From positions 1 through 53,088 of the IMG/VR virus record IMGVR_UViG_3300031857_000262: a stretch of 53,088 bases of DNA; one strand, written 5' to 3'. Shown one piece after another: positions 1,217 to 53,088 of this stretch. Position 1 is the stretch's first letter. Each line of letters opens with the position of its first letter. The translations under genes were made by a program, and so were the position numbers. The stretch is from a virus (Duplodnaviria; Caudoviricetes). The notes beneath the pieces were generated by a model. That model did no database searches. It saw only the letters and a list, made by a program, of their open reading frames with translations, and was not told where the DNA came from.

Positions 1217-1238
1217 CCCTCCCCAGGAGACTCGTCCC

Positions 1239-1505
1239 GTGCCCAAACAACCCGTACCCAAACAGCTTGTTATTCAATATCTCAAAGACCCCAAAAATGT
1301 TTTGAGTCAATTGAAGCAATTGTTTACAGAGTTGCAGATTCAATATAAGACCGAAAATCACACGGTCGTAGTTCTTAACTGCAACGAAACAGTGGCTAAA
1401 CGTATTCAAGACACTCTTACAGCCATGCACCCGACTAACTGTAAAACTTGGATACACGAAACGTTTTATGGTTGGAACACCGGCTATTGTGAACCTCGTT
1501 CTTAG
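1239..1505 (+). CDS. hypothetical protein
   Basis: 88 aa ORF, GTG start preceded by CCCCAGGAG. Confidence 0.6.
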   Translation: MPKQPVPKQLVIQYLKDPKNVLSQLKQLFTELQIQYKTENHTVVVLNCNETVAKRIQDTLTAMHPTNCKTWIHETFYGWNTGYCEPRS

Positions 1506-1596
1506 GAATTCGTCATGGTCCACAGAATCCGTAAAATCCGTTGTAAGTATCTCGTTGACAATCACCACCATTCTTCTCGAAAGGAATCCATGCAAT

Positions 1597-1917
1597 ATGG
1601 AACAACCAAACCAACCAAGTCCAGTCTCCCCAGGAAATTCACCGGCCAACTCCGAGGTGGAGTCTCAGGATGCGACCTCTCAGGACTCATTCAAATTCAA
1701 CCAGTTGACTCCCAACAACCAAGCCCAACTAGAGTTTATCCTGATTCGTCAGAAGGATAACATTCTAAAAGAAATCAACTCAGGCAATCCTTCCGTAGCA
1801 ATGGCTAAACTCAAACTCGTCAAAGAACTCTGGGAAAACACCGAGTATCTTTACAAGTACTCAGAACTCCTCACCAAACTCGAACACAAACTCAAGTCTC
1901 GACTCTCTCATGGATAA
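1597..1917 (+). CDS. hypothetical protein
   Basis: ORF 1468..1917; ATG 1597 follows AAGGA; helical C-terminal half; overlaps the next start. Confidence 0.55.
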   Translation: MEQPNQPSPVSPGNSPANSEVESQDATSQDSFKFNQLTPNNQAQLEFILIRQKDNILKEINSGNPSVAMAKLKLVKELWENTEYLYKYSELLTKLEHKLKSRLSHG

Positions 1918-2440
1918 CCTACTACCAACCATTACTGGTAAGACTATCACAACCAGGGGTGATCTTACCTTCGAAGAATTGAAAGAATCTTTCAAATTGC
2001 TGCAAGAAGTTTTTGATGCTCCTGTAGTAACCGGAGCAGACCTTATCGAACAAGAAATGAGGACGTGTGGTCATCTTGGTAAGTCAAGGTTTTGTATACC
2101 CTTAGACAAGGACACGCAAGAACTTCACTCCAAAATTTACGAAAACCTATCAATCAACTTAAGTCTTGGATGGAAAAAGGAAGACAAACCCGTCATGAAA
2201 ACTCTCATCATTTACAACAACCTAACCGAACCCTTACAATTCCTTCTCGTCGAAGGTGACTACTCCAGGTTCAACGGTATCTACGTTGGTTCCGACGACA
2301 CAAACGACACCGTAGACGAATTTAATGCTTGGCGATGGGATGAATACGGATTACTCCGAACCACCGACTGGACTCAAGACACCGCTATTCTTGAAGCCAA
2401 ACAATTCGACAAAGTCGCAATCGTCACCTTTCTACCCTAA
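1910..2440 (+). CDS. hypothetical protein (possible internal start at MKTLIIYNN)
   Basis: 176 aa ORF in the packed operon. Confidence 0.65.
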   Translation: MDNLLPTITGKTITTRGDLTFEELKESFKLLQEVFDAPVVTGADLIEQEMRTCGHLGKSRFCIPLDKDTQELHSKIYENLSINLSLGWKKEDKPVMKTLIIYNNLTEPLQFLLVEGDYSRFNGIYVGSDDTNDTVDEFNAWRWDEYGLLRTTDWTQDTAILEAKQFDKVAIVTFLP

Positions 2441-2461
2441 CATCCCAGGAAACTCTCACTC

Positions 2462-2992
2462 ATGGCTAACGTAGAACGTCTCCAACAACTGCTAAAAACA
2501 GTTACTACCTTTTCAGACAACTTTAACTACCGATGTACTCTAGCTATTATACCCCACTGCCCTGTAGGACCGAAACCACAGTATCACAAAAATGCTAAAT
2601 GGACTGATACTCAAACTCCAGATTTTGAAACAGCTTTGAAGTTGTTGGTACAAGACAACACAAATCACACCTGCGGTTCTTGTGGATGTATGATCGGTTT
2701 CACAAATGCATTGTTGCTTGATTCTTACAAAGCCGAACAAGCCGATCCGAATGCCGACGAAGCCGAAGCGTCTAAAAACTGGCTAGGCCTAACCAATGCT
2801 GAACGAGAATTTCTGTTCTATCCCAATAACTTTGTAACACTTTGTGCTCCGCATGACTATCTCTCTGAATTTTCGATCGACAAAAACTTCCCAGGATGGG
2901 AACACTGTACACACGAAGTAGGTCTAAAAGAAGGCTTACGTCGACTCCAGTTTTTGATCGACTACCACTCTAACCCACAAAACCCACAGTAA
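2462..2992 (+). CDS. hypothetical protein with CGSCGC motif
   Basis: 176 aa ORF preceded by CCCAGGA. Confidence 0.7.
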   Translation: MANVERLQQLLKTVTTFSDNFNYRCTLAIIPHCPVGPKPQYHKNAKWTDTQTPDFETALKLLVQDNTNHTCGSCGCMIGFTNALLLDSYKAEQADPNADEAEASKNWLGLTNAEREFLFYPNNFVTLCAPHDYLSEFSIDKNFPGWEHCTHEVGLKEGLRRLQFLIDYHSNPQNPQ

Positions 2993-2997
2993 CTCTC

Positions 2998-3375
2998 ATG
3001 GAATCCCTCAACATTGGTCCTTGTCCTGCTGACGAAATAGCAGCAGACCTCAAAAGTCCACACTACCGTACTTTGTGCAAACTAGAACTCAGTTTGTACA
3101 AACAACAACTACTCGAAGAAATCTTACTCAAGTGGCCCGAAGAAGGTTGTCTTGTTAGATTCAAAACCACTTCCAACCCTCACGACTTCGGTACATACCA
3201 CGAAATCGACGTAATGTACGACTACTCCGTAAATCCTGTTTCTAGAGACCAAGCCTATTACTGCGAAGGCCATGCCAACACCACTTGGACAGACGAACGT
3301 CGTACAATCCTCAACAATCTTCGTGAATCTCTCGGCCTCGAACCTTTACTCAAACCTAAAAAAGACCCACCATGA
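2998..3375 (+). CDS. hypothetical phage protein (PHDFGTYHE motif)
   Basis: 125 aa ORF, ATGA overlap with the next gene. Confidence 0.7.
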   Translation: MESLNIGPCPADEIAADLKSPHYRTLCKLELSLYKQQLLEEILLKWPEEGCLVRFKTTSNPHDFGTYHEIDVMYDYSVNPVSRDQAYYCEGHANTTWTDERRTILNNLRESLGLEPLLKPKKDPP

Positions 3376-51536: not shown

Positions 51537-51564
51537 ACCGATCCGATCCGTCGAATAAAACTTC

Positions 51565-51598
51565 AAACCCAAGGTAGTTTATCTATCTTGGGTTTTTT
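51565..51598 (+). terminator. Rho-independent terminator
   Basis: AAACCCAAGGTAG/CTATCTTGGGTTT stem plus T tract after the 50145 gene. Confidence 0.75.
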
Positions 51599-51821
51599 CG
51601 TTTCTACACTTGACAAGGCTAGCCGATACTCTAGGATAGTATTCCCGGCTACACTTTGTAGCCGATCGGACCATTCACCCCAGGAAAGATAGAACAATGC
51701 AAGTTTTTTCGAGACTAGAACTGTTGACCGGAATTTTGTTGGTTGAGTCCCTACTAGCCAAAATTTTGTTTGACTACTCTATCCTAATCCGCATTTAACC
51801 TTTACCCCAGGAGCTAAGACA

Positions 51822-52046
51822 ATGTACAACAAAATGACGGCTACCCAAAAACAAGACTACGCAAAATTTCGGAATATGGGATTTCCAGCACTAGCCGCTA
51901 AGATCCTAGCTACGCCAAACGGAATCGGAGCCTATTCCCAACTTATGGAACTGGGTTTTGTTTGCGTAAATCAAGACAAAACCCCAACAATACTAGACTA
52001 TCCGACCGTTCTCAGAAGAAACCTTATGAGCAAACGAGAAATCTAG
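51822..52046 (+). CDS. hypothetical protein
   Basis: 74 aa ORF preceded by CCCCAGGAG. Confidence 0.6.
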   Translation: MYNKMTATQKQDYAKFRNMGFPALAAKILATPNGIGAYSQLMELGFVCVNQDKTPTILDYPTVLRRNLMSKREI

Positions 52047-52072
52047 CCACTAGCCCACAATTCACCCCAGTT

Positions 52073-52102
52073 AAACCCCAGTCTAATCAACTGGGGTTTT
52101 TT
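52073..52102 (+). terminator. Rho-independent terminator
   Basis: AAACCCCAGT/ACTGGGGTTT stem plus T tract; followed by CGTTTCTA like the 51565 terminator. Confidence 0.75.
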
Positions 52103-52169
52103 CGTTTCTATAGCCCTAGCTTGACGTTTGACGATAGCAAACCGTTTCAAGCTATGATTGTAGCCTAAT

Positions 52170-53088
52170 CCGATCCGATACATTCTAGGGGCAATCTAGC
52201 CCTATTCTATAGCCTAGCATATCCCCTAATGCTACCCCTCCCAGGAGTAGCTAGGCTACTATCTTGGTTTCTAATGCTATTCTATCCGGCATTAGCCTAA
52301 CTTATGCTATCCGATACCCTCGGATCGATTCTATCAATCAATTCCCAGGGTATTCCTATGCACCCTCTAAAATCGTTTTTAACGCACGTTTTTAGAAATT
52401 GTGGGCTATCTATCGTCCAACCCATTGCGTTCATTTTGGGGCAATCTAGGGCCATTCCTAGGGATATCCTGTTTAGCGAACTAGCCCAACCATAAGCCTA
52501 GCTTATTCTAGCCTTGCCTAGCATTACCCTATCTACTATTCCCTATAGTGTTCCAACTAATGCTAGCCTACCATCTAGTAGCCCAACTAATACCCCAAAA
52601 AAGTAGGCTATCTAATGCTATCCGGCTTGACATAAGCTAGCCTTACTATGAGCTACACTTATTTCTCAATTTGAGAAAACAGTCCGACTTATAGTAAGCT
52701 AGTCTAATGCTAGCCTATGGTTCATTAGTTCGGCTTACTATTCATTCCACTAATACTACTCGGCTTACCATAAGGCCAACTTAACATACGTTCTACTAAT
52801 GCTATCCCTAGTAGCATAAGCCTAGCTTACTATTCATTCCACTAATGCTATCGACCCCAGGATAACCCCAGGTTATTATACGTTCTACTAATGCTAGCCA
52901 TACCGTTATTAGTTCGGCTTACTATACGGTTTACTAATGCTACCCCTCCCAGGATAAGCCGGCCTTACTATACGGTTTGCTTATGCTAGTGCCGATAGCA
53001 TTAGGTTTGCTACTGTAGCCTATATGCAATCGTTGTGCAGGTGCAAGGCCATTGCATAGGTTCTTGGTCCGGTTTGCAGCAAGTGCCA
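52170..53088. repeat. non-coding mosaic of short degenerate repeats
   Basis: recurring CTAATGCTA, GCTTACTAT, TAGCCTA; exact duplications such as TAATGCTACCCCTCCCAGGA at 52227 and 52935. Confidence 0.75.

Follow-up and report, generated by a model that had tools for sequence, protein, structure and literature searches.

The genome and the CCCAGGA word

The DNA considered here is the IMG/VR virus record IMGVR_UViG_3300031857_000262 (Duplodnaviria; Caudoviricetes), all 53,088 bp of which were analysed and are called the window. It is a siphovirus-type genome with all sizeable genes on the + strand, and the gene call of this analysis contains 66 open reading frames (ORFs), all on +, that make up 90% of the sequence. 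Scattered along this strand is a short word, CCCAGGA, together with a second form, CCCCAGAA; the word is a real, strongly selected, family-wide polar signal and a member of no known system. A literature search, with supplementary files outside its scope, found no printed description of it. The copies in the window start at the following positions.

CCCAGGA, + strand: 1222, 1629, 2444, 2890, 3639, 3749, 4253, 4613, 5365, 7150, 7318, 9783, 10708, 12188, 13427, 16201, 17990, 18621, 19397, 21661, 22349, 22839, 23918, 24744, 27108, 27277, 27885, 31078, 31615, 32651, 35761, 36534, 37106, 37712, 37937, 39254, 40756, 42263, 43344, 43707, 44336, 44554, 46638, 50019, 51679, 51806, 52240, 52856, 52948
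CCCAGGA reverse copies, - strand: 8285, 19529, 20341, 22960, 36143 (span 8285 to 36149)
Second form CCCCAGAA, + strand: 524, 3970, 3994, 6579, 12638, 15116, 21084, 24504, 28409, 30402, 33006, 38125, 38670, 45127, 45403, 46120, 46458, 47229, 48375, 48417

Enrichment of the word

The 54 exact copies of CCCAGGA comprise 49 on the + strand and 5 on the - strand, which bears out the estimate of roughly 45-50 against about 5 made in an earlier sequence-only reading of this DNA; the seven copies of CCCCAGGA that it named (1221, 1628, 4612, 10707, 31614, 42262 and 52855) are all real. Among the 49 + strand copies, 29 are CCCCAGGA and 33 are CCCAGGAA. Dinucleotide shuffles counted on both strands gave a mean of 4.99 copies (standard deviation 2.31, largest 11), and none of 100 shuffles reached 54. 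The many variants that had been mentioned are also present, since CCCCAGAA occurs 20 times on + and twice on -, where 4.6 copies are expected under the synonymous shuffle described below. Taken together, CCCAGGA and CCCCAGAA give 69 sites in the window with a mean gap of 771 bp, so that the polar site proposed about once per kb is found once per 0.77 kb when CCCCAGAA is counted. By the gene call of this analysis, 59 of these 69 sites lie inside genes.

Two nulls that preserve the encoded proteins were used. The synonymous null shuffles codons within each gene, keeping the amino-acid sequence and the codon usage (300 samples); it yielded 14.2 ± 2.2 copies of CCCAGGA, with a maximum of 20, and these figures include the 9 intergenic copies, which are fixed. 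The dicodon null also fixes the amino acids, but here the choice of each codon depends on the one before it, with frequencies taken from the dicodon table of this genome, in which the word is already included; it yielded 21.4 ± 2.9 copies, with a maximum of 31 in 300 samples. The observed 49 copies exceed both maxima, and the enrichment, which the sequence-only reading had expected to vanish under a null keeping protein, codon and dicodon usage if it was spurious, therefore persists. Longer forms stand out further: CCCAGGAA was observed 33 times, against 8.7 (maximum 16) under the dicodon null and 4.5 under the synonymous null, and CCCCAGGAA 21 times, against 4.2 (maximum 12) under the dicodon null. 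When all 6-, 7- and 8-mers are compared with synonymous shuffles, the word family deviates most strongly; under these shuffles, AGGA (199 vs. 217.5), CCCC (179 vs. 178.7) and CCTGG (33 vs. 35.8) are not enriched. The - strand shows no avoidance of CCCAGGA, with 5 copies observed and 1.9 expected.

It is very improbable that the excess is a by-product of coding, through Pro-Gly or Pro-Gln-Glu pairs or a codon or dicodon preference, or of CCWGG methylation and very-short-patch repair. What speaks for such an origin is that 23 of the 49 copies read Pro-Gly (CCA-GGA), that the dicodon null lifts the expectation to its higher value, that a DUF559/Vsr-like gene is present, and that a true coding artefact of the word exists elsewhere: in the unrelated record G017, which was rejected as a carrier, 11 of 12 copies stand in the single phase CCT-GGG within a few genes. 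In the window, by contrast, the copies are divided among the phases xxC-CCA-GGA (23), xCC-CAG-GAx (12) and CCC-AGG-Axx (5), and 9 lie between genes, as had been claimed in arguing that coding does not explain them. This phase spread, the two amino-acid-preserving nulls and the conservation of silent sites in relatives led to the rejection of a coding artefact. The Dcm/EcoRII site CCWGG, put forward earlier as the core of the word, did not hold up either. CCAGG is found 88 times against 55.1 expected, and CCTGG is at expectation; CCCCAGAA, which is equally enriched, has no CCWGG, so this site is not the core, and three related lineages carry nearly exclusively CCCCAGA or CCCCCAGA (CCCCAGA at 18:0 in G008, 12:0 in G010 and 30:0 in G009), forms that are likewise without CCWGG. 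The earlier remark that no methyltransferase is visible agrees with the absence of any methyltransferase family among the 60 predicted proteins scanned against Pfam, a scan that left out a few small ORFs; five further large proteins (PolA, TerL, portal, capsid/protease and tape measure) were compared with PHROGs only.

Anatomy of the signal

The flanks of the word were described from 192 distinct CCCAGGA sites in four genomes. Upstream, base -3 is C in 70% and base -1 is C in 61% of the sites, and G makes up 1-8% at six of the seven bases from -1 to -7, the exception being -5 with 14%, and is scarce as far as about -18. Immediately downstream of the core, A stands in 70% of the sites, and G rises to 30-35% at 5-9 bases past the core, compared with a background of 20%. 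The second form CCCCAGAA has the same flank asymmetry as CCCAGGA, so position 7 of the word is to be written R, and the pattern is absent at CCCC runs outside the word. The unit is thus about 30 nt long and lies on one strand: about 12 G-poor and C-rich bases, C[A/T]CCCC(C)AGRAA, 3-4 A-rich bases and about 8 G-rich bases.

A CCCC...GGGG hairpin with AGRAA in the loop, similar to boxB, was considered and rejected. GGG follows downstream at only 13-30% of the sites, and the flanks are not consistently more likely to pair than random positions (pairing probabilities 0.15 vs. 0.17, 0.23 vs. 0.17 and 0.27 vs. 0.18). Since a hairpin is possible at few sites and pairing is not consistently raised, the signal is linear and not structural.

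A role in translation was rejected as well. The starts at 1239, 2462, 10724, 31628 and 51822 are each preceded by a copy of the word, as the sequence-only reading had observed, with its end 6-11 nt away from the start, but these are 5 of 49 copies, and the link to Shine-Dalgarno sites is incidental. The ribosome-binding position, taken as 3-16 nt upstream of a start, is occupied by those 5 CCCAGGA copies and by 0 of 20 CCCCAGAA copies in the window; in relatives, it is occupied by 4 of 56, 2 of 44 and 0 of 25 CCCAGGA copies. Among 56 CCCCAGAA copies counted, none occupies it. Only a small minority of copies thus qualifies. Internal translation starts were rejected because no excess of a downstream ATG coupled to the word was found.

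The word in related phages

Searches of IMG/VR with the polymerase, capsid and primase proteins recovered about 25 related records or loci. The main whole records are given below with the protein identity to the window and the sense:antisense counts of the word.

G001, polymerase 99%: CCCAGGA 47:9
G004, polymerase 99%: CCCAGGA 45:7
G002, polymerase 77%: CCCAGGA 43:4
G005, capsid 83%: CCCAGGA 32:2
G003, polymerase 65%: CCCAGGA 56:6
G006, polymerase 62%: CCCAGGA 44:4
G007, polymerase 52%, GC 0.38: CCCAGGA 25:6
G008, polymerase 48%: CCCCAGA (CACCCCAGA) 18:0
G010, polymerase 47%: CCCCAGA 12:0
G009, polymerase 41%: CCCCAGA 30:0 and CCCCCAG (CTCCCCCAGR) 35:1
G011, polymerase about 41%: CCCAGAA, weaker, 18:2

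In 7 further lineages, represented by 9 whole records, the word family ranks first or nearly first among the one-strand k-mers, and its form drifts across the family from CCCAGGA to CCCCAGA and CTCCCCCAGR, with G008, G010 and G009 using CCCCAGA or CCCCCAGA almost exclusively. Similarly, in most of about 10 further loci of 12-22 kb (primase identity 39-73%, GC 0.34-0.45), the family is again the top one-strand k-mer, for instance, at 12:0 in L130, 10:0 in L122 and 10:1 in L126. The word is weaker in G011, L131 and L132. It persists down to about 40% polymerase or primase identity and over GC contents of 0.34-0.45, and the excess over synonymous shuffles holds in eight of eight genomes tested. 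To judge from the genomes compared, the word follows the phage lineage over a wide range of base composition.

Every relative examined, about 25 records or loci, has the one-way gene layout of the window, with no strand switch of the word and no inverted gene block found among them. Priming sites on the lagging-strand template would change strand at a bidirectional origin; the lack of a switch agrees with unidirectional replication and, to the same degree, with transcription. Because all genes lie on one strand in every relative, a polarity set by replication is inseparable from one set by transcription. The primase is conserved throughout the family. The motif-poor lineage (G011/G012) retains the helicase, Vsr-like, UDG-like, PD-(D/E)XK, AAA_24, polymerase and primase genes, so no candidate reader gene tracks the motif.

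Outside the family, a viral collection was scanned for two CCCCAGGAA copies 270-300 nt apart. The scan returned 39 loci and recovered few known family members, which marks its low sensitivity. No dispersed word outside the family was found in these 39 loci by this insensitive scan, and three of the loci belong to the family (two of G003, plus G018). Three others (L090, L061 and L079) were rejected as carriers, being tandem Pro-Gly-type repeats. Another group of scan loci (L098-L104) belongs to G019, an unrelated 139,665-bp virus record of GC 0.55, in which CCCAGGA is in excess on both strands (60:59, with a reversed control of 12:23) and does not have the flank pattern.

Selection, turnover and spacing

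The conservation of the word at silent positions was measured where the three overlapping amino acids match between the window and a relative, by asking how often the 7-mer is identical. It is kept in 10 of 12 cases in G003 (background 0.20-0.32), 18 of 20 in G002 (0.38-0.51) and 11 of 13 in G005 (0.32-0.45). Comparison of synonymous positions in relatives had been proposed in the sequence-only reading, and the silent positions within the word are indeed kept above background; by this comparison of sequences, the word is under purifying selection there. Individual sites are retained to different degrees, namely, 35 of 40 alignable sites of the window in G001, 21 of 28 in G002, 11 of 14 in G005 and 12 of 32 in G003. 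Conversely, of the G003 sites that can be aligned (36), only 12 have a counterpart in the window, and amino-acid differences accompany 21 of the remaining 24. As sites turn over in this way, selection acts more to preserve the word and its density than to fix it at given positions.

The spacing of the sites was tested with the coefficient of variation (CV) of the gaps, which is about 0.95 under random placement. The CV is 0.78 in the window (G000; P 0.02), 0.75 in G003 (P 0.006), 0.66 in G006 (P 0.0003), 0.71 in G002 (P 0.001), 0.62 in G007 (P 0.007), 0.46 in G008 and 0.56 in G009 (both P < 0.00025). The excess evenness is not significant in G005 (P 0.07) and G010 (P 0.15), and G011 is chance-like, with a CV of 1.22. 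Gaps below 150 bp are depleted (in G009, 0 vs. 6.2 expected), and the mode lies at 450-900 bp. The density is uniform over the early, replication and late modules. A rule of one site per gene was rejected, as longer genes have proportionally more sites and no part of a gene is preferred; within the tape-measure gene alone, CCCAGGA recurs about every 1.5 kb.

The largest motif-free gaps in the window are 24744-27108, in the region of the S8 protease, and 33006-35761, at the capsid gene. The protease-region gap is found in G000, G001, G002 and G006 and the capsid-gene gap in G000 and G006. Contigs assembled from two RNA and two DNA runs were compared with positions 16001-36000, with RNA cover showing presence only; the late genes are covered, and in the two metatranscriptome runs the most RNA-contig cover lies on the protease and capsid/cement genes. 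The word thus seems to be excluded from the most expressed genes. RNA contigs from two different metatranscriptome studies have their first base at 24951/24952, some 140 nt ahead of the S8 protease gene (region 24951-25089), and this position may be the 5' end of a late transcript.

The reverse orientation occurs at or above synonymous expectation in eight genomes (for instance, 5 vs. 1.9, 6 vs. 2.1 and 0 vs. 0.6), with one borderline low count for CTGGGG in G009 (1 vs. 4.8, P = 0.047). KOPS-like, architecture-imparting and Type III restriction logics were rejected since the wrong orientation is not selected against.

Gene content and genome ends

The genes of the window were named from PHROGs, Pfam and fold searches. 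Those with a possible bearing on DNA metabolism, together with the other features placed on the sequence, are as follows.

4451-5944, +: UvrD-like SF1 helicase (PHROGs, Pfam), conserved in relatives
6428-7579, +: ATP-dependent DNA ligase (phrog_114; Pfam DNA_ligase_A_M and OB_2), in 7 of 11 relative records
8327-8785, +: small DUF559/Vsr-like endonuclease (Pfam DUF559, E = 7.8e-4, below the curated cut-off)
8870-9580, +: UDG-superfamily protein
10724-11782, +: PD-(D/E)XK nuclease
11782-12678, +: MazG-like protein
12712-13488, +: AAA_24 ATPase
15772-15844: tRNA-Lys
16872-18764, +: family A DNA polymerase
18990-21020, +: primase-helicase (PHROGs primase and primase/helicase families; weak zinc-ribbon Pfam matches)
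21020-23194, +: GpA-type large terminase
23191-24246, +: protein with a dATP/dGTP-diphosphohydrolase-like C-terminus
52678-52999, +: array of 46-nt tandem units (ACTAATGCTA... boxes) at the right end (repeat families D1 and D2; TRF)

Further named genes are an SNase-like nuclease, the S8 protease, the portal, a protease/capsid fusion, a cement protein and the tape measure, and a ParB-like gene is also present. The window sequence occurs in 24 runs of assembled contigs, from lake and freshwater metagenomes and some labelled fungus metagenome, and no DNA match to it was found among cultured phages. The best protein matches, at about 25% identity, are actinophage polymerases and Mu-like terminases of proteobacterial phages; matches in the protein atlas have their taxa given as 'Viruses'. 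Two genes are nucleotide pyrophosphatase-like, the MazG-like gene at 11782-12678 and the gene at 23191-24246, whose dATP/dGTP-diphosphohydrolase-like C-terminus is as in Z-genome phages, and no PurZ-like gene was seen in the window. It is possible that the phage alters the nucleotide pool or has a modified base in its DNA. Many early genes (for instance, at 1910, 2998, 3846 and 4451) have ACTCTC or CACTC directly before the ATG, without AGGA, and late genes have ordinary AAGGA/GGAG sites; this initiation context of the early genes is unusual and conserved.

The homologous first base (GC...ATTTTTA..ATCCC) is identical in four independent assemblies (G000, G001, G003 and G006), and the left end is therefore probably a physical genome terminus; the CheckV completeness estimate of 36% is likely too low. 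At the right end, the 46-nt array holds the CCCAGGA copies at 52856 and 52948, and a related unit at 52226-52251 holds the copy at 52240. The sequence-only reading had placed copies of the word in terminal repeats, but no repeat common to both ends was found, and these three copies lie in or near the array instead. Some array units resemble -35/-10 promoters with the motif between the two hexamers, and by its sequence the array may represent tandem (early) promoters or an origin with its iterons. The right end of G001 (reverse-complemented, 51300-52300) differs, having a CT-rich low-complexity stretch of about 1 kb with GAGCTCCCTTCC-type units. Four reverse-orientation motif copies lie there within 600 bp, the sole such cluster among the relatives.

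A putative reader of the word

The word is strictly polar, evenly spaced, indifferent to genes and conserved throughout the lineage, features that suggest an enzyme moving along a single strand. The word is thus probably a signal for an enzyme tracking along DNA, most likely part of the phage replication machinery, and its most likely reader is the replisome of the phage itself, acting on single-stranded DNA. As to the enzyme itself, we tentatively favour the primase-helicase (18990-21020), for which the word would provide the preferred start sites of lagging-strand primers; this remains a possible rather than a probable assignment.

A primase of the required kind is encoded in the window, beside a signal whose selection, spacing and spread through the family are matters of observation. 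The protein has an N-terminal DnaG-type zinc ribbon, a TOPRIM domain (EGxxD, DxD), a P-loop (GAPSSGKT) and a C-terminal winged helix, and the CxxC...C zinc ribbon and the TOPRIM EGxxD/DxD residues are invariant columns in the alignment of the family. Its AlphaFold model has a pLDDT of 80.7, and the top Foldseek matches of the model are Twinkle, Aquifex DnaG, MCM, T7 gp4 and the T4 primosome; the profile was also compared with the PDB. The winged helix is ArsR/SmtB-like (profile E = 0.003-0.3) and, by analogy with other primase-helicase initiators, may bind origin repeats. If replication runs the same way as transcription, as we infer, the + strand would serve as template for the lagging strand. 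AGRAA would be the 3' flank to which the primase binds, itself unread, a purine-initiated primer (pppGGGG...) would presumably start on the C run, and copying would proceed over the G-free stretch upstream. The proposed template would then consist of 12 G-free nt, followed by CACCCCAGGAA and AAA. The G-depleted stretch 5' of the core is where a primer of about 11 nt would be templated, and the C run provides a pyrimidine template for a purine-started primer. The reverse orientation, which is not avoided, fits a site that is simply unused on the other strand, and even spacing with short gaps depleted suits a distance-limited process. The ligase at 6428-7579 would seal the Okazaki fragments or nicks. 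An 8-nt site has been reported for the NrS-1 PrimPol, a precedent for a long phage primase site (PMC8718748).

Several points weigh against a primase as the reader. The one-way genes of the roughly 25 relatives mean that polarity fits transcription or mRNA equally well, and the helicase half of the protein looks MCM/AAA+-like, so that it may track either strand. The motif-free gaps on RNA-covered genes hint at an expression cost, which priming does not explain. Known DnaG-type sites differ from the word in being about 3-5 nt long (the 5'-GTC-3' family of T7 gp4) and in having no genome-wide footprint; DnaG-type primases need only about 3 nt, and we know of no primase that imposes a 9-11-nt word at even spacing. 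In T7, the best-studied primase-helicase phage, the pentamers [GT]GGTC, which we take to be its primase sites, number 118 on + and 117 on -, without bias or excess, so a short-site primase leaves no such footprint. Moreover, the 8-nt site of NrS-1 was later relaxed to GTGR (PMC8718748).

Alternative explanations

Chi and the nick sites of certain phages are two known systems close to the word in form, and each is a somewhat doubtful explanation. Under the former, the word would be a 'do not degrade / start recombination' signal for the host RecBCD or AddAB, protecting linear or rolling-circle phage DNA; these enzymes would read it on the strand with the 3' end, perhaps in the form of its G-rich complement, TTYCTGGGG, on -. 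Like Chi, the word is a short, polar, over-represented and frame-independent word of 7-9 nt, kept by selection without penalty for the opposite orientation, Chi being read on one strand by a translocating enzyme, and its complement resembles the G-rich Chi words GCTGGTGG and variants (PMC8022716). The genome probably has fixed physical ends, as seen in the four assemblies with the same homologous start base, and in the tail of a rightward rolling circle the exposed 3' end would be that of the - strand, in which TTCCTGGGG has its active orientation. Since Chi words are unknown for most bacteria (PMC8022716), a host Chi of the word's form is possible. Chi is, however, set by the host enzyme and enriched in the host genome, whereas the word follows the phage lineage and drifts little across phages of GC 34-45%, probably with different hosts. 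The extension of the signal over about 30 nt with rules of flank composition sets it apart from Chi, as does its regular spacing with short gaps excluded, which is not a known Chi property, and the word is 5-10 times denser than Chi in E. coli. Its dispersed form was restricted to family members in the viral-collection scan, itself of low sensitivity. A scan of bacterial genome contigs gave one remote match, a Phycisphaeraceae metagenome-assembled genome with a 24%-identical polymerase, and there the word shows no excess (8:6, against 15:15 for the reversed control). Under the nick reading, a phage nickase would cut the + strand of packaged DNA at each copy of the word, as in the localized single-strand interruptions of T5, tf/LUZ24 and phiKMV, and a ligase would reseal the DNA after injection. 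The word is exclusive or nearly exclusive to one strand (49:5 in the window; 30:0, 18:0 and 12:0 in the CCCCAGA lineages), and its placement ignores gene boundaries. In these phages, too, the sites are asymmetric one-strand words of 7-9 nt that are scattered in coding DNA and conserved within a phage group; the tf nick consensus, 5'-TACT/RTGMC-3', is found only on the top strand, at 14 nicked sites (PMC3517423). A Vsr/DUF559-fold endonuclease occupies the same place in 9 of 11 relative records, and the ATP-dependent ligase is found in 7 of 11, which makes the 8327-8785 protein, as modelled, a candidate nickase under this reading. Its model (pLDDT 77.8) has fold matches to I-Bth0305I, NGO0050 and Vsr that are weak (Foldseek E 0.02-0.08), and it could equally be a repair or homing enzyme; its fixed place is unlike that of a mobile homing endonuclease. 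Against nicking, 50-70 sites are unprecedented, as known nicked phages have 3-17 per genome, and no known nick function selects an even spacing of 0.5-2 kb. In tf, moreover, the nicks are physically shown, whereas here they are hypothetical; the tf word keeps to one strand across two convergent transcription units, whereas the family of the window has one-way genes only; and the accessible part of the tf report does not describe even spacing or a 30-nt flank pattern (PMC3517423).

A signal in transcription or mRNA is unlikely. It would take the form of a stoperator-like protein site, of an antitermination element (for instance, against Rho) acting in the non-template strand or RNA, or of a site to which an RNA-binding protein attaches. 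In its favour, the word keeps to the sense strand throughout, Shine-Dalgarno sites coincide with some copies, and the two gene regions richest in RNA-contig cover have none. Rho-type RNA is unstructured, C-rich and G-poor, and the C-rich, G-poor flank resembles it. The phage has its ParB-like gene, and its nearest cultured polymerase relatives, at about 25% identity, are actinophages. In cluster A mycobacteriophages, the stoperators of L5 type (bound by gp71) are more than 20 asymmetric 13-mers, tens of sites per siphovirus genome of about 50 kb, with an orientation that follows transcription (PMC9283540). These, however, lie in short intergenic spaces (PMC9283540) and promoters, belong to temperate phages and diverge with immunity type, whereas 59 of 69 sites here are intragenic, at any relative position, and the core is conserved to about 40% protein identity, where an immunity site should diversify. 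Neither a repressor nor an integrase was found in the Pfam and PHROGs scans, in which most small proteins match no family. Half of the family's forms lack GGA, and because the CCCCAGA forms have none, a Shine-Dalgarno or CsrA-type reading is ruled out. No start codon is coupled to the word and no consistent RNA structure accompanies it, and its uniform density over the modules also speaks against a role in expression.

Significance for the phage family

The primase-helicase is thus the reader that we tentatively favour, and the wider consequence concerns how these phages handle their DNA. Since a word of 9-11 nt is selected, evenly spaced and one-stranded family-wide, a tracking enzyme probably reads the phage DNA (or RNA) with a specificity far above that of known primases, and at a density far above that of known nick, Chi or stoperator systems. 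It is conceivable, and we offer it as a tentative proposal only, that the family hard-wires a map of discontinuous DNA synthesis or processing. A phage enzyme specific for 9-11 nt, either the primase-helicase or, with the word as a 'Chi' specific to the phage, the UvrD-like helicase acting with the PD-(D/E)XK nuclease, would act only at the word, which selection places on one strand at intervals of 0.5-2 kb even where this constrains codon choice and changes amino acids, and the word would also mark the phage DNA as self against the host.

The phages that carry the word form a deep family of abundant freshwater phages, and the word is a sequence signature for spotting this uncultured siphovirus family in metagenomes. 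If the reader is a nickase, or the word a signal of nuclease control, the finding would bear on why phages carry strand-specific nicks or self-marks. A primase as the reader would make this the first genome to be shaped around the start sites of its own Okazaki fragments, and would provide a simple assayable system of one protein and one oligonucleotide.

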